Shown here piece after piece: positions 1 to 38,412 of a stretch of DNA of 64,000 nucleotides (the first letter of the stretch is position 1; every line of letters starts with the position of its first letter). Source of the stretch: Spirulina sp. (lineage in GTDB: Bacteria > Cyanobacteriota > Cyanobacteriia > Phormidesmidales > Phormidesmidaceae); the NCBI GenBank assembly GCA_044070495.1, contig JBIPSI010000006.1, positions 32,001 to 96,000 on the forward strand, read 5' to 3'. The translations under genes and the position numbers were made by a program. The notes beneath the pieces are model-generated. The model saw nothing but the letters and a program-made list of their open reading frames with translations, was not told the origin of the DNA and made no database searches.

Positions 1-3000
1 CCTCACTGCGAACCTGAATCTGCCCCCCATGCAGATCTATAATGCGCTGCACCAGGGCTAGGCCCAGTCCGGTACCGCTGTACTGACGATTGAGGGTGCT
101 ATCAATCTGCACAAAGGGCTTGAAGAGCTTTTCTAGGTGCTCTGGGGCAATACCAATGCCCGTATCGCCCACGGTGATCCGCACCCAGGGGGTATCCGTC
201 GGGTCTGTGGTTTCCAGACGTTGGGCCGTCAGGGTGATGGTGCCATCGGTGGGGGTAAATTTGACGGCATTGTTGAGCAGATTAATCAACACCTGGCGCA
301 GACGACGCTCATCCACCAGCAAGTCGGGCAAGTGATCGGGCACATTCACCTTGAGGGTAATGGCCTTGGCTATGGCCTGAGGTTGCACAAAGGCGAGGCT
401 AGAGGAGCACAGGTAGGTTATCGCCACAGGGGCGAGATCGAGGCTCATTTGCCCCGCTTCAATTTTGGCGAGATCCAGAATATCGTTGATCACTTCTAGG
501 AGGTGGGATCCGCTGCTTTCAATGGTGCCCAGGGCCTTGTGCTGCCGATCATTGAGGGGGCCAAATACGCCATCCTGCAAGCCCTCGGCCATCCCTAAAA
601 TGGCGTTGAGGGGAGTGCGTAGTTCGTGGCTCATGTTGGCCAAAAACTCGTCCTTCATGCGGGTGGCCCGCGCCAGTTCCTGGTTTGTTTGCTGGAGCAC
701 CGCCTCGGCCTGCTTGCGATCACTAATATCCGTGACGCGCACCAGCTTGAGTTGCTGTCCACCCACGGTAATCAACTTAGCGGCAATGTTGCCCCAAAAC
801 CGCTGACCGGAGAACGTGCGGTACTCAACCTCCTGGCTCCAAACCCCGCTACTGGAGAGGATGGTGTAAATGGCCCGGAGGTCGTTCTCGGAGAAGGGGT
901 GAACCTGAAGCCTGTGGCCTTCAATGTTAACTAACTGGTGTTTCTTTGAGGCTTCAAAGAGATCAACGGCGCGCTGGTTGCAGTCTAGGGTTCTTCCGGT
1001 TTGGACATCCACCAAGAACAGGGCATCGGTGGATTCGTTGAAAATGGCCTCCCGCAAATCCCGACTGCGAATCAGTTCTAGCTCGGCGCACTTGCGGTCG
1101 CTAATGTCTCGGATGAAAAAGACCACCTCATCGGGGCCGCAGGGGGCCACGCGCACCTCCTCGTAGCGGGGCCTGCCGTTAAGGGGGATGACCTGTTCGT
1201 AGCACTGCACCGTTTGGGTGTCTAGGGCGTGATGGATGGTCGTCAGCTTTTGGGCGAGGTGATCCTGGGAAGTGCCAAAGGGCAGCGCCTCCGAGAGATG
1301 CTTGCCCACCGCCTGCTGGGGATCCACCAAATTGCCGAGGGCCGGGGAGACCATAAAGTCGAGGTAAACGCCCTCGCGATTGACCCGGAAGATTAGGTCG
1401 GGGAGCGCCAGCAGGGTGGCGCGGACTCGTTCCTCGCTCCGTTGCAGGGCGTGCTGCATGGCCTTGCGTTCGCTTACATCCATGGCAATGCCAAAAATAC
1501 GGGTGATCTCCCCCCGGTGAGAACGATGGGAGGTCGCCTTCACAAATAAATAGCCCTGGCTGCCATCGAGGCGAACAACGGGGAGGTCGTCGGAACAGGG
1601 TTCTCCGGTGGCTAGGACCTGGTCAATCAGGCGGTTGAACCGATTCCAGGTGGCCTCAGACACATGGGGGCGCAAATCCCCGCAGCCCTGCCCCGGAGGA
1701 TGCCCCAGCAGCACCATAATCTCCTCCGACCAGGTGATCTGGCGGGTTGGGCCATCCATTTCCCAGCGCCCTAGGTGGGCCACCTGCTGGGCCTCCTTGA
1801 GGCGAGCTTTGCTGTACCGGAGTGCCTCTGTACGCTGGGTCACCCGATCCTCGAGTTCTCGGTTGAGGCATTCTAGGGCTTGGGTGGCCTGGTCTTTTTC
1901 GATGGCAATCTTGACTAAGTTCGCCGCCAACTGAAGGGTGTCCAAGTCGTAGGGGTAGGGTTTTTGGGGCTGTCGATAGTAAACGGCAAAGGTGGCCAGC
2001 ACAGGGCCATCGCTGGCAAAGACGGGGATCGACCAGCAGGCCCGTAGCCCATGGGCCAGGGCCAGGTCTCGAAAGTCAGCCCAGAGGGGATCGGTGGCAA
2101 TGTCTTCGACAATCACGGGTTGCCGTCGCAGGGCCGCCGTACCACAGGATCCCATCGCTTCTCCCACCGCCGTTCCCCGCAGGGCCTCGCTGTAGGCATC
2201 GGGCAGGTGCGGGGCGACCGCTGGATAAAGACGATTATCGTCCCGGCAGAAGAGGATGGAGCAGAGGCTCCCCGGCAGGTGATCCTCCAGGGCGACCACC
2301 AGATCCGTCAGAATATCCCCTAGGGGTTCGCTGCGGGCAATGCTAGCTAGGATGGCGCTTTGTAGGGCTAGGCGCTGTTCTGTGCGGTTGCGTTCCGTGA
2401 TGTCGATAGCCACGCCGCCCACCAGGGTTTTGCCATTGGGTTGCGGCAGGGGAAATTTAAACGACAGGAACTCCCCTGGGCTGTGATCGGGGTGAACCCC
2501 TGGCTCGACGACCTCCAGCCCTTCGTCATGATCCACGACCCAGCGGTTGTGGTGGGCATAGACCTGGGCAATCTCTGCGGGAAACAGGTCGAAGAGCGAT
2601 TGCCCCTGGGGGGTCGGGGAGATCGGGGTTAGTGATGCATAGTTACGGTACCAGCCCCGGCTGGCATACTCTAAACGATGGGTTTCTGGATCCACAATCC
2701 AGGCCACCATAGGGCTGTTATCCATAAAGGTGCGGAATCGGATCTCGCTGGCCCGCAGCGCGGCTTCAGCCTGCTTGAACTCGTCGATATCCGTATGGGT
2801 ACCCAGCATTCGTAGGGGCCGACCCTCCTCATCCCAGGCCACAATTTTGCCCAGGGAAAGCAGCCACTTCCAGTTTCCGGCCTGGGTTTTGAGCCGAAAC
2901 TCTAGCCGATAGTTGGGGATTGCTCCGGCGATATAGGCATCGTAGGTCGCCAGGGCGGCTTCCCGATCCTCCGGGTGCAGCATACTGCGCCAATGTTCCT

Positions 3001-10926: not shown

Positions 10927-11397
10927 CTATCCCCGTCCGCTGAGTGCCCGATCCGTTTCCCGTTTTTCCTGCTTACGCTTGAGGGACTCCCGCTTGTCGT
11001 GGAGTTTTTTGCCTCGCGCTAGGGCAATGCTGACCTTAATCCAGCCGCCCTTCAAATACATCTTGAGGGGCACTAAGGTCAGCCCCTTTTGTTCCACCTT
11101 GCCGATCAGCTTGCGAATTTCGTCCCGGTGCAACAGCAGGCGGCGGGGGCGCTTGGCCTCGTGGTTGTAGGCTTTGTTGGTCATGGTGTGGGGCGAAATG
11201 TGGATATTCTGAAGCCACATCTCGCCGTCCTTGAGTTGGGCATAGCCATCCCGCAGGTTCACCTTGCCCTGGCGAATAGACTTCACCTCCGACCCCAGCA
11301 GTTCAATGCCCGCCTCGTAGGTCTCTAGAATTTCATACTCGTGGCGGGCCTGACGGTTATCGCTAACGACCTTAAACCCTTTGCTCTCGTCCGCCAT
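10927..11397 (-). CDS. smpB: SsrA-binding protein SmpB
   Basis: [29 protein letters not shown] and GKKLHDKRE motifs; start set at MADESKGF. Confidence 0.97.
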
Positions 11398-35580: not shown

Positions 35581-35653
35581 TTGCCTCAGCGCCCAAGTTT
35601 CAAGTTTTCACGAAGGAGCCGCGATTGCCCTAACCCCTCACAACTGCATAGAC

Positions 35654-35785
35654 GACCGTAGACAGCAGGTGCATTTTTCCTGCATAAATCCTGCCGAGGT
35701 TGACGTTGCGATGGAGGTTTCCAGTTCTGGACTGGAAACGGCTAATCGTGGGTCTGCCCCGGCGAACTGGTCGGGGCTTTGTTTT
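35654..35785 (+). promoter_or_regulatory. Ribosomal protein L10 leader RNA
   Basis: ACCGTAGACAGCAGG...AATCCTGCCGAGG core upstream of rplJ, followed by a GCCCCGGC..GTCGGGGC-TTT hairpin. Confidence 0.75.
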
Positions 35786-35871
35786 GGGAAAAATCGGGAC
35801 ATCATCACCAGCGGCCCTCTGCCCGTGAGTATCCAGTTTTCTATCCCCGCTATAAAGGAGGTGAGATTGAT

Positions 35872-36438
35872 ATGGGGAGAACCCTAGCGAATAAGAAAGA
35901 GATTGTGGGTGAAATTCAGGATCTCCTGAAGGAAGCTCAACTGGCCTTTGTGATTGACTACAAAGGGCTTAGTGTTGCTGAAATTACCAATCTGCGGAAC
36001 CGTCTGCGGCCCAAGGGTGCGGTGTGTAAAGTCACCAAAAATACCCTGATGCGGATTGCCGTGGAGGGCGACAGCAATTGGGAACCGATGACCGAGTTTC
36101 TGAAGGATTCCTCAGCCTTTGTGCTGGTGAAGGAAGACTTTAGTGGCGCGATCAAAGAATACCAAGCGTTCCAGAAGGAATCTAAGAAAACCACCCTGCG
36201 GGGTGGGGTGATGGAAGGTCAGGCGCTGACCGAAGATCAGGTCAAGGCGATCACCGAACTGCCGACGAAGGAAGAACTGATGGCCCGTTTGGCGGGTGCT
36301 ATTAAGGCCATGCCGACCCGTCTGGCGGTGGGTGTCAAGGCGGTGCCGACCAAGCTGGCGGTGGGTATCAACGAAGTTCCGGCTTCGCTGTCCCGTGCCA
36401 TCAAGGCGGTCTCCGAGCAGGGCCAGGACGCGGCCTAA
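35872..36438 (+). CDS. rplJ: 50S ribosomal protein L10
   Basis: MGRTLANKK, DYKGLSVAEI..LR, KNTL and LPTKEEL motifs; SD AAGGAGGTGA. Confidence 0.97.
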   Translation: MGRTLANKKEIVGEIQDLLKEAQLAFVIDYKGLSVAEITNLRNRLRPKGAVCKVTKNTLMRIAVEGDSNWEPMTEFLKDSSAFVLVKEDFSGAIKEYQAFQKESKKTTLRGGVMEGQALTEDQVKAITELPTKEELMARLAGAIKAMPTRLAVGVKAVPTKLAVGINEVPASLSRAIKAVSEQGQDAA

Positions 36439-36516
36439 AAGCCCTGGTCTGCTTCAGTTTGACCACAAGTCCGACAACCAACTTTGTTTTTTGTACACAG
36501 GAGTTAAGTCTTAACG

Positions 36517-36927
36517 ATGTCTGCTAAAACCGATGAAATTCTCGAACAGCTAAAGTCTCTGTCTCTGCTGGAAGCTTCTGAACTGGTTAAGCAAATCGAA
36601 GAAGCCTTCGGCGTGGACGCTTCTGCCTCCGCTGGTGGCGGCATGATGATGATGGCCCCTGGCATGATGGGTGGTGGCGCAGGTGCCGCTGCTGCTGAGC
36701 CCGAAGAAGAGAAGACCGAATTCGATGTGGTTCTCGAAGACGTGCCCGCCGATAAGAAGATCGCCATTCTGAAAGTGGTGCGTGGCCTCACCGGTCTAGG
36801 TCTGAAGGAAGCCAAGGAGATGGTGGAAGCTGCTCCTAAGGCTGTGAAGGAAGGCGTGACCAAGGACGACGCTGAAGCCGCTAAGAAAGAACTTGAGGAA
36901 GCTGGCGCTAAGGTGACCGTTAAGTAG
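36517..36927 (+). CDS. rplL: 50S ribosomal protein L7/L12
   Basis: [10 protein letters not shown] and [12 protein letters not shown] motifs. Confidence 0.98.
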
Positions 36928-36960
36928 GTTTAGCCTAAGGTCTGACCCTCAAGGTTTGAG

Positions 36961-36992
36961 AAGCCTCCTGTCATGGTACGGGGGGCTTTTTT
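36961..36992 (+). terminator. Intrinsic terminator of the rplJL operon
   Basis: AAGCCTCCTGT...ACGGGGGGCTT followed by a T-run. Confidence 0.75.
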
Positions 36993-37120
36993 GTGGCTTC
37001 GCCCCGGTGAAGGGAATTTCCACCAGCCCCACCTTGACGAATGATGGTGCGACTCGCTAGCGTGAAGACTAATCATCATCAAATGGCGACCGAGCCTTTG
37101 GTCGCATTGAGGAGGACACC

Positions 37121-37342
37121 ATGGCGCAACGGTTGAAGCGATGGGAATCCCCCCGTCGCCCAGGTCGCAACGATAAGGGGCGGGGTGGCAGTGCCCGTCA
37201 ACGACAGCTTCGCAAACGACATCAGGAACTGCGAAACCGCCTTCGCCAGGGGGATACCCCTGCGGAGACAACTAGCACTAGGACGCACGATTCTGGGGAG
37301 GGCCAAGGCTCTCCCTTTTTTGTATCCTTGGATTGTTTCTAA
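37121..37342 (+). CDS. Small basic protein; candidate alternative ribosome-rescue factor (ArfA/BrfA-like architecture)
   Basis: SD GGAGG 5 nt before the ATG; putative promoter TTGACG-N18-TAGCGT (37034-37063); Arg/Lys-rich with KGRGGS; intrinsic terminator inside the ORF. Confidence 0.65.
   Translation: MAQRLKRWESPRRPGRNDKGRGGSARQRQLRKRHQELRNRLRQGDTPAETTSTRTHDSGEGQGSPFFVSLDCF
37295..37321 (+). terminator. Intrinsic terminator located inside ORF 37121-37342
   Basis: GGGAGGGC-CAAG-GCTCTCCC followed by TTTTTT, ending 18 nt before the TAA. Confidence 0.75.
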
Positions 37343-37365
37343 CTGCGCTCTCGGGCAGTTCATTC

Positions 37366-37450
37366 TAAATCCGGCTGGTTTGCCCTCGGTATCAGTGGAC
37401 GAGGAGACCTCGCCCCTACGGCTTGTCGGGTGGGGCATCAGGGTTTTCTA
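37366..37450 (+). repeat. Dispersed ~85-bp repeat with a GTAG-type REP core, copy 1
   Basis: TAAATCCGGCTGG...GAGGAGACCTCGCCCCTAC...GGGTTTTCTA; matches the copies at 38413, 43603 and 48627. Confidence 0.85.
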
Positions 37451-37795
37451 ATGCAGATTTGCTCTAAAAATAGATTGTTATCTTTGGGGTGTCGCGCTAG
37501 CGGCATGGACGATTGGTATCGGGAGCATTTGTCACTCGGCTATGGTCTACGGTTGTCTGGGTTAGGTGTTGAAGTTCTCTTCTGCGAGTTTGGCATGGCC
37601 CTAGGCTGAATCGGAACTCGATTGTTACCATAGGCGTCAACAGACGCTAGGCTAAATCGATTTAGGTTTAGCTAGTTTGCATCATGGATCGGGATGTCCG
37701 CCAATGGCATCCACGGGAGGCTACCCTTCTCCGGGGAGAGGTGATCCCACCTTATTCGCCACTGCTACTTCGCTACCCAGATATTTCTTGGTTTT

Positions 37796-38275
37796 ATGGT
37801 TAATCCCTCCGCCCTTGGTGTTGCGTTTTTGGTGCTTCTGGCGACGACCACGGTCGTGGGCTCTTCGCCGCCTACTCAACCCTCCTTCCAGGTTGCCCAT
37901 CCCTCCCTTAGCGACTTGATTGACAAGGACCCCATGGGAGGCAAAGCCGAGTTGCTACCAGCAGATACGATTCACCTCGATCAAGAGGGATTAAAAGAGC
38001 CCCAGTGGCTATCGGTACAGGTACCAGAGGGGGCGAGTTTTGAGGGAACCTTGGCGGTGAATGGTGAGGTCAAGTATCGCTTTGGGGCGGAGGGAATCCG
38101 CTTGGATCTGAAGGATATCCTGGCCTTGGGGGCAACGGACGTGGTCCTAGCCGGGAGCTATAGCCCTGGCGATGGGTCAGTTGTGGTGTCTTTCAACAAT
38201 TCAGAAACCACCGTACGTCAGCAGGTGGGGCAACGGGGACAGGTTCACTATCAGATTAATTTTTGGGTAGATTAG
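37796..38275 (+). CDS. Hypothetical secreted protein
   Basis: Hydrophobic N-terminus and a beta-rich domain; upstream of wza. Confidence 0.6.
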   Translation: MVNPSALGVAFLVLLATTTVVGSSPPTQPSFQVAHPSLSDLIDKDPMGGKAELLPADTIHLDQEGLKEPQWLSVQVPEGASFEGTLAVNGEVKYRFGAEGIRLDLKDILALGATDVVLAGSYSPGDGSVVVSFNNSETTVRQQVGQRGQVHYQINFWVD

Positions 38276-38412
38276 AGGCCGTCTCCGATGGCGTCTAGGA
38301 TCGAGAACGCTAGGATAGGCCTGATGATGCGGCGGTGTAGGATGTTGCGCTTCCAGGGTGTCAATCACGGCGGGTGGGCGAGGAATTTGCGACATTGGTT
38401 TGGGGCTAATCC

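Follow-up and report, generated by a model that had tools for sequence, protein, structure and literature searches.

A small-protein family of cyanobacteria with an intrinsic terminator inside its reading frame: a candidate ribosome-rescue factor made from self-truncating nonstop mRNA

Why would a bacterial gene carry a transcription terminator ahead of its own stop codon? The question is raised by a small open reading frame (ORF) in a 64,000-nucleotide (nt) stretch of a Spirulina sp. genome (contig JBIPSI010000006.1, positions 32,001 to 96,000; hereafter the window). The ORF has 73 codons plus a TAA and starts 193 nt downstream of rplL (Table 1). A preliminary description of the locus proposed that it encodes an alternative ribosome-rescue factor translated from an mRNA that ends before the stop codon is reached. 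The ORF, its GGAGG Shine-Dalgarno sequence, the terminator hairpin and the spacing to the TAA were all found where that description had placed them, and the translation is identical to the one it quoted. To our knowledge, only the ArfA and BrfA families, both narrow in range, are deliberately made from stop-less mRNA. We found that the terminator inside the frame characterizes a whole family of genes, and the comparative evidence, together in part with RNA reads from a relative, makes it very probable that these genes are built to produce a self-truncating nonstop mRNA. Tagging of the nonstop product by transfer-messenger RNA (tmRNA) would follow from what is established about trans-translation. 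That this product works as a back-up ribosome-rescue factor is, by analogy with known systems, our best single guess, and we give it close to an even chance.

The hairpin in the window forms 9 pairs (two of them G-U) around a CAAG loop, with a folding free energy (dG) of -16.9 kcal/mol (z -2.67, 1 of 200 shuffles as good). It shows the hallmarks of an intrinsic terminator, which are a G+C-rich hairpin (here a 9-bp stem and a 4-nt loop) and a U-run directly behind it. The U-run ends 18 nt short of the TAA, and an RNA ending there encodes 67 residues and contains no stop codon. A terminator scan of the surrounding region is by itself not above chance (3 sites against 2.2 expected). The more-than-chance case for this terminator comes from the homologous loci, since 94 of 97 keep such a hairpin.

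These 97 loci come from 97 genomes, in each of which the ORF was located by tblastn. A terminator was scored as a single stem-loop of at least 5 pairs with a dG of -7 or lower, followed by at least four T in seven positions. By this definition, an intrinsic terminator lies inside the ORF, ahead of the first in-frame stop, in 94 of the 97 loci. Measured from the ATG, the median start of the hairpin is 158 nt (range 117-246) and its median end 186 nt; the median dG is -15.4, and the stop codon follows 1-249 nt beyond the hairpin (median 52). If the RNA ends about 7 nt past the stem, the predicted product has a median length of 64 amino acids (aa; interquartile range 61-67, range 52-92). There are three exceptions. 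Locus L067 has the hairpin with an interrupted T-run, and L071 and L078, the two most divergent members, have no hairpin and stop at codon 51 or 50. At a dG of -7 or lower the definition is not very specific, with 94/97 loci observed against 7/194 shuffles and 38/181 windows from neighbouring coding sequences (CDS); at -12 or lower, the counts are 87/97 against 0/194 shuffles and 10/181 equal-sized CDS windows. The hairpin is kept inside the ORF whatever the orientation of the downstream neighbour, which is convergent in 50 loci, co-directional in 44 and absent in three.

The 94 hairpins comprise 89 distinct sequences with 77 distinct 5' arms. With 89 different sequences among 94 hairpins, it is the structure that is kept and not the sequence, and the apparent conservation of a C-terminal ‘GE...SPFF’ in the protein is the translation of GGGGAG...CTCCC-TTTTTT. 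When 73 of the 91 distinct hairpin stretches (the 18 omitted ones were mostly near-duplicates) were aligned by MAFFT, RNAalifold returned 0 pairs because MAFFT leaves stems of different length out of register. We therefore relied on folding each sequence separately, with the shuffle and coding-sequence controls given above; a tabulation of pair types within groups of hairpins of equal geometry is partly circular.

The preliminary description had suggested a test of its own proposal, namely that homologues should conserve the terminator within the ORF and not the tail behind it, and the family passes on both counts. The tail is 0-81 aa long. In an ungapped comparison that starts at the U-run, tails of 6 aa or more show 7-9% identity, and the value is still 0.09 for the 175 pairs in which the conserved block matches at 90% or better. 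Counted from the hairpin, the first stop comes at a similar distance in each of the three frames (medians of 52, 32, and 39 nt). Convergent neighbours provide an internal control: the downstream ORF stops ahead of the hairpin in 47 of 48 loci. Ordinary genes at the same hairpins thus have the stop first and the terminator second, and the small gene breaks this rule. Because the stop of the convergent neighbour lies 0-60 nt from the hairpin in 24 of the 48 loci, the terminator is shared there, and in 18 of the 48 the formal stop of the small gene lies inside the coding sequence of the neighbour.

RNA reads were analyzed for a family member of another genus (L059; four raw-read runs, X21 to X24, from two studies). 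Its gene is expressed from the expected strand, with a 5' end at 2663 (75 molecules in X24), which is 19 nt ahead of the ATG. In X24 the depth drops from 346 in the bin that precedes the hairpin (2512-2535) to 85 in the one covering hairpin and U-run (2488-2511), and to 65 in the one between the U-run and the stop (2464-2487). For X21/X22/X23 the same bins give 110/171/75, then 86/126/50, then 76/133/50, with earlier peaks of 126/201/89. The depth thus falls at the in-frame terminator, before the stop, by 4-5-fold in one run and by 1.3-1.8-fold in three, and these values give an inexact terminated fraction, as standard libraries under-represent an RNA of ~175 nt and the minus-strand depth rises again below 2400. 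With a truncation signal inside the coding sequence in 94/97 loci and a drop in depth at the hairpin of L059, the self-truncating design put forward from the window is strongly supported. The hairpin of L059 is common to a convergent 819-aa ORF. A separate feature of the same locus is that minus-strand depth climbs again between 2200 and 2420 (181/344/191 in three runs), antisense to the 3' end of this 819-aa ORF, and this renewed signal may be an antisense RNA starting near 2400 or stabilized read-through.

The small ORF belongs to a large family. A word-indexed search at E<=0.01 gave 1102 homologous proteins; those with a name are all hypothetical, and the named sources are nearly all cyanobacteria. 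The exact protein of the window occurs on one contig. Among 1.84 billion cluster representatives (clusters at 50% identity), a profile search matched 453 at E<=1e-3 and 394 at E<=1e-10; the 150 best matches are 66-172 aa long and carry their conserved part N-terminally. An evenly drawn sample of 401 genomes from the phylum (178 of the class of the window organism and 223 of other classes) has the family in 114/178 and 0/223 genomes, respectively, with one match per genome at E<=1e-5. It was not found in the 29 small genomes of one family (f2) of the class sample.

Residues 5-41 are almost invariant across the family (LKRWESPRxxGRNDKG[RK]GGSARQRQLKKxxQxLRxxL). Within this block, DKG(R/K)GGS is near-invariant, with K in 92, G in 94, G in 92 and G in 92 of 95 loci. 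For the 37 conserved codons of these 95 loci (two of the 97 have no ESP anchor and were excluded), the mean pairwise identity at codon positions 1/2/3 is 0.72/0.84/0.42, and 71331 synonymous differences stand against 38968 nonsynonymous ones. The free third positions and the synonymous excess therefore indicate selection on the translated protein and not on the RNA, and judged by these sequence comparisons, the small ORF is a real, translated gene under protein-level selection. None of the family databases searched has an entry for it. With the 73-aa protein as query, hmmscan matched 0 Pfam-A families at E<=10, an NCBIfam search gave nothing significant, and Rfam has no family with a meaningful score over the ORF, whether in the window or in 10 loci of the family. 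The ESM Atlas returned unnamed cyanobacterial clusters only, and a full-text literature search gave no description of the family or of any cyanobacterial ArfA-like factor.

Four members with a natural stop indicate how much of the protein is needed. They all end just after the predicted helix, and comprise L071 (51 aa), L078 (50 aa) and two homologues in the IMG/VR collection (L133:1501-1629 and L134:1501-1626; 43 and 42 aa) on contigs of 208 and 119 kb, one of which has a terminator behind the stop. Because these stop-bearing forms end after the helix, the first 42-50 residues make a sufficient protein, and the linker (median 13 aa, range 0-31) and the hairpin are dispensable. In the cellular genes these two parts thus look like an add-on that fits a regulatory role. 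The IMG/VR copies, which lie on putative viral contigs, would be constitutive and free of nonstop control. Among the 11 ORFs around both copies, PHROGs gave a dCMP-deaminase-like match only, and their viral nature is the label of the collection.

AlphaFold2, run with alignment A3 (120 sequences), predicts a single regular element, a helix of residues 24-43, and disorder elsewhere. The mean pLDDT (the confidence measure of the prediction) is 66.6, with block means of 76 for residues 21-30 and 90 for residues 31-40. In its general build, the protein resembles ArfA, BrfA and ArfT, which are short, basic and unfolded until bound, and this is a resemblance only. It contains no GGQ motif and no Pfam domain and is thus distinct from ArfB, which is recognized by an RF-1 domain with GGQ. 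In a profile search of all PDB chains, the family matched Nop14, at a weak E of 0.083 and over an N-terminal segment that contacts rRNA, and Nro1, and nothing else at E<=10. No similarity to BrfA appeared in this search, which presumably included the BrfA chain. Prediction of a complex between the 67-aa product (A3) and the organism's own release factor (RF) 2 (A4, 28 of 30 RF2 loci, two with internal stops being excluded) scored 0.00 in two runs without controls and counts neither way.

Among the known systems, BrfA (YqkK) of Bacillus subtilis has a similar gene layout. As published (PMC6881298), BrfA has 71 codons with a typical intrinsic terminator within the coding sequence and a product of ~62 aa, against 73 codons and ~67 aa here. 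According to the same text, BrfA is tagged by tmRNA and degraded, accumulates only when there is no trans-translation, and has been seen on the ribosome in a reported structure; its authors judge it independent of ArfA in origin and expect unidentified rescue systems in many bacteria (PMC6881298). The two families differ in range, BrfA being confined to a subset of Bacillaceae whereas the cyanobacterial family reaches 114/178 genomes of its class, and in the status of their partner, as RF2 dependence is demonstrated for BrfA and the use of a release factor is a proposal, drawn by analogy, for the cyanobacterial protein.

ArfA (YhdL, PF03889) of Escherichia coli likewise is a small basic protein made from a nonstop mRNA, with a Lys-Gly-Lys-Gly-Ser-type motif and a full-length read-through tail that is dispensable, as it is in the cyanobacterial family. 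The nonstop mRNA of ArfA, however, also involves cleavage by RNase III. According to the ArfT study (PMC6299226), the KGKGS motif of ArfA binds the empty mRNA channel. The same study describes ArfT of Francisella as a 40-aa basic rescue factor with the motif KKGGSTNKK that evolved independently of ArfA, escaped homology searches and is not regulated by way of a nonstop mRNA (PMC6299226). ArfT, compared here by its published motif and description alone, is similarly very small and basic; its lack of nonstop control resembles the stop-bearing forms L071, L078, L133 and L134 and not the gene in the window. ArfB (YaeJ) senses the empty channel by a basic C-terminal helix, according to the same study (PMC6299226), but it has its own RF-1/GGQ catalytic domain, which the cyanobacterial protein does not have. 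By sequence, we assign the family to none of the known factor families and regard it as a known kind of circuit with an unrelated sequence. Beside this comparison, we note that arfA of E. coli K-12 (L132:5432-5650) lies ~1 kb from rplQ, the end of the alpha ribosomal-protein operon, and that the annotation places yrdG, an arfA-derived small RNA, over its 3' end. That arfA sits near rplQ and the small gene near rplL is probably a coincidence.

A different small protein of cyanobacteria also had to be considered. A 2026 preprint (PMC13640635) describes cS24/bS24 (Ssr3189, Asl3888; COG5794, PF30515) as a basic, ribosome-associated protein of 54-55 aa found in most cyanobacteria, with invariant K9/R14/N15, conserved first 23 residues, a helix in the first 26 and an RNA recognition motif (RRM) gene upstream. 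It shares with the family studied here its small size, high basicity, cyanobacteria-wide spread and single predicted helix in an otherwise disordered chain. As described there, it is abundant and well expressed with a C-terminal tag (PMC13640635), and it is therefore not a nonstop product. The identity of the two proteins was rejected, as the family has invariant L5, K6, W8, E9, P11, R12, G15, R16 and N17 onwards, and its helix spans residues 24-43. A genome signature scan revealed a separate, very basic 60-aa protein with K9/R14/N15 at G000:C1:21790-21969 (-), outside the window, which is a candidate cS24 by the published signature only. It is unrelated to the small-protein family (hhalign probability 0.08%) and occurs in 55/61 genomes of the class, including some that do not have the family, and was not found in three other sampled genomes of the window organism's own taxonomic family (0/3). 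A search for cS24 by synteny, downstream of four RRM genes, gave S21 only.

The proposed control requires the tmRNA-SmpB system, and the genome encodes both parts: a tmRNA (121.7 bits) with the tag ANNIVPFARKAAPVAA and, within the window at 10942-11364 (-), smpB (Pfam SmpB, 207 bits). The latter lies ~26 kb upstream of the small gene and is not adjacent to it, so their sharing of the window is probably a coincidence. The genome also encodes an RqcH-type NFACT_N protein. It contains only two RF-1 domains, assigned by NCBIfam to RF1 and RF2, and hence no ArfB was found in this genome, which is 97% complete; PF03889 had no match in the whole genome at E<=10, and thus no ArfA was found either. These findings agree with the preliminary description, which had proposed an independently evolved back-up rescue factor. 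In a survey of 15,259 genomes (PMC11633108), arfA occurs in 0/162, ArfB in 90/162 and RqcH in 161/162 cyanobacterial genomes.

From these observations a mechanism can be proposed. The in-frame terminator would end most transcripts about 67 codons in and leave them without a stop codon, so that ribosomes would run to the 3' end. tmRNA-SmpB would free the stalled ribosomes and tag the peptide for degradation, and the protein would build up only once trans-translation is saturated or has been lost. The functional unit would be the first ~42-50 residues, with the LKRWESPR..GRNDKG(R/K)GGS segment followed by the basic helix. The helix and the Lys/Arg-Gly motif may bind the empty mRNA channel and the decoding centre, and the N-terminal segment may recruit a release factor, since the protein is without a GGQ of its own. 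Taken as a whole, the reading would make this the first RF-dependent alternative rescue family of cyanobacteria, independent of ArfA, BrfA and ArfT, kept in check by trans-translation through the in-ORF terminator, ancestrally placed in a tRNA-Leu(CAA) trailer, and constitutive in its stop-bearing, putatively viral copies. All of this together we hold tentatively, at somewhat under an even chance.

Several observations weigh against the rescue function. The motif lies in the N-terminal third of the protein, before the helix, whereas ArfA and ArfT carry theirs in the C-terminal tail. The preliminary description had counted the likeness of KGRGGS to KGKGS in favour of its proposal, but hhalign pairs the family profile with E. 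coli ArfA over a single 13-column alignment (RPGRNDKGRGGSA against RVEKNKKGKGSYM is the sole stretch paired) at a probability of ~1%, which is not significant; nor was any significant sequence relation to known factors found at E<=10 in Pfam ArfA or the PDB chains. The position beside a ribosomal-protein operon, also counted as support, is specific to the genus: rplL lies upstream in 10/97 loci, all of the window's genus. The RNA evidence stems from a genus other than that of the window organism, and the fall of only 1.3-1.8-fold in three of the four runs means that stop-containing read-through mRNA exists. RqcH is already near-universal in the phylum. Finally, taking a third RF-1 domain as a stand-in for an ArfB-like protein, we found no complementarity in the 178 class genomes: the family is present in 59 genomes with and 55 without this domain, and absent from 38 with it (29 of them in f2) and 26 without. 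These 26 genomes have neither, which shows that the factor can be dispensed with. We regard the lack of complementarity as neutral rather than contrary, since ArfA and ArfB occur together in E. coli.

The explanation that competes best with a rescue factor retains the nonstop transcript and its tmRNA control, and gives the protein another job, such as damping initiation, hibernation, stabilizing or recruiting ribosome-associated quality control or MutS2, or stress signalling. All the evidence on the architecture applies to it equally. A disordered basic peptide with one helix is like many rRNA-binding peptides, and the weak match to Nop14, the best among the PDB chains, involves a segment that contacts rRNA; the presence of RqcH in this genome as in nearly all surveyed cyanobacteria and the missing complementarity with ArfB fit as well. 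Another job is nevertheless unlikely in our view, as all proteins that we know to be deliberately nonstop-made (ArfA and BrfA) are rescue factors, the Lys/Arg-Gly-Gly-Ser motif is similar to the one by which ArfA and ArfT bind the channel, and no other function has specific support.

Alternatively, the family could consist of ordinary small basic proteins made mainly from the read-through mRNA, with the hairpin serving as an attenuator of expression level, as the terminator of a tRNA-Leu unit or as a shared bidirectional terminator, and tagging being a tolerated by-product. The substantial read-through in three of the four RNA runs speaks for this explanation, and the hairpin does have other users, namely the convergent neighbours that stop within 60 nt of it in 24/48 loci and the tRNA-Leu(CAA) unit in 25/97 loci. 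Yet a stop codon before the hairpin would be free of cost, and it is missing in 94/97 loci although the convergent neighbours have one in 47/48. The tail, which a read-through protein would carry, is random in sequence and length and enters the coding sequence of the neighbour in 18 loci, and the hairpin stays in the ORF beside convergent and co-directional neighbours alike. We consider this explanation quite improbable. Very improbable is a leader peptide, riboregulator or small RNA that acts on the downstream gene with a functionless peptide: the transcript is short (about 175-200 nt), ends in a terminator and in the window has a hairpin ahead of the start codon, but third codon positions are free while amino acids are kept, the downstream neighbours vary and are convergent in 50/97 loci, which disfavours a leader role, Rfam gave no meaningful match in the window and in 10 loci of the family, and the 5' hairpin is not conserved.

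The features of the locus are collected in Table 1. Upstream, the terminator of rplL is kept in most of the 9 aligned members of the genus and sets the small gene apart from the rplJL unit. The promoter given as putative in the preliminary description is weak. Its two hexamers are present, but a promoter consensus scan of 36400-38400 gave 0 promoter-like sites, this one included, and among the 9 aligned genus members the hexamers are common to the window and its closest relative (L002) only; six other members have TAGCAT or TATGAT ~35 nt before the ATG. The hairpin in the 5' leader is not conserved in the genus alignment. A motif like Shine-Dalgarno is found in 40/97 family loci. Further upstream in the window, at 35638-35792 (+), lies a ribosomal protein L10 leader before rplJ (Rfam RF00557, 51.9 bits, above the gathering score), which is the ordinary autoregulatory leader of the rplJL operon.

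Table 1. Coordinates of the small gene and its surroundings in the window, and of the homologous gene in the relative L059
Feature	Position	Strand	Remarks
rplL (ribosomal protein L7/L12), upstream neighbour	36517..36927	+	Pfam Ribosomal_L12 (2.1e-28) and L12_N
rplL terminator, hairpin and U-run	36958..36997 (hairpin 36958-36991)	+	dG -20.1, z -3.87, 0/200 shuffles as good
Putative weak promoter TTGACG-N18-TAGCGT	37034..37063	+	Hexamers read in the sequence
5'-leader hairpin, of doubtful significance	37086..37105	+	Fold of 37070-37125: dG -16.2, z -1.75, 10/200 shuffles as good
Shine-Dalgarno sequence GGAGG	37111..37115	+	5 nt before the ATG
Formal ORF	37121..37342	+	73 codons plus TAA; 73 aa
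Conserved basic block, codons 5-41	37133..37243	+	Invariant columns in family alignments A1 and A3
Predicted basic alpha-helix, residues 24-43	37190..37249	+	AlphaFold2
Variable polar linker, codons 44-58	37250..37294	+	Unalignable, N/K/Q-rich across the family
In-ORF intrinsic terminator hairpin, codons 59-66 (GEGQGSPF)	37295..37316	+	Fold
U-run, predicted 3' end of most transcripts	37316..37321	+	Six U counting U37316
Unconserved tail VSLDCF and TAA (37340-42)	37322..37342	+	On read-through transcripts only
Gene of L059 (locus of the relative)	ATG 2644, hairpin 2491-2512, U-run 2485-2490, stop 2453-2455	-	

Across the family, the widespread arrangement upstream is a tRNA-Leu(CAA) gene on the same strand, 21-142 nt (mostly 21-33) before the ATG, in 25/97 loci (L017, L019, L020, L025, L029, L031, L033, L034, L036-L039, L055, L057, L058, L067, L068, L073, L076, L083, L084, L087-L090). 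In L058, for example, the tRNA gene is at 2389-2470 and the ATG at 2495. The arrangement spans at least 13 GTDB families and includes two other genera of the window's family. A promoter would not fit into this spacing, so the small gene's message is probably made as the 3' trailer of the tRNA-Leu precursor, and the in-frame hairpin of these loci probably terminates the tRNA unit as well. It looks like the tRNA-Leu arrangement is ancestral and the genus of the window organism moved the gene behind rplL. A link between the tRNA-Leu(CAA) gene and UUG codons was rejected, as UUG is used at the four conserved leucine sites in 8, 4, 14, and 2 of 95 loci. Other neighbours recur too. A gene for an M48 (HtpX-like) peptidase, often ahead of the tRNA, accounts for 17 of the 51 upstream ORFs scanned (51 of 94, with opposite-strand calls and near-duplicates omitted), and in about ten loci (L011, L012, L020, L022, L023, L024, L026, L027, L030) the formal stop is followed at 28-147 nt by a tRNA-Gln(UUG) gene of the same strand, which puts the small gene there between or near tRNA genes. 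This translation-related neighbourhood, with tRNA genes across the family and the rplJL operon in the window, mildly supports a translation-related job.

If the rescue function is right, the family, present in about two thirds of the sampled genomes of the cyanobacterial class, would be the third family of this gene design, unrelated to the other two, and the circuit would have evolved repeatedly. It would offer a testable candidate for the means by which oxygenic phototrophs withstand a failure of trans-translation, and a signature readable from sequence alone (a conserved basic block, a terminator and an unconstrained tail) by which further factors could be sought. A tRNA transcription unit would then also deliver the back-up for tmRNA, and constitutive copies would let phages supply rescue capacity independently of the tmRNA of the host. 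Even without a rescue role, a protein that is conserved so widely and has its level governed by tmRNA capacity would serve as a new indicator of translation stress.

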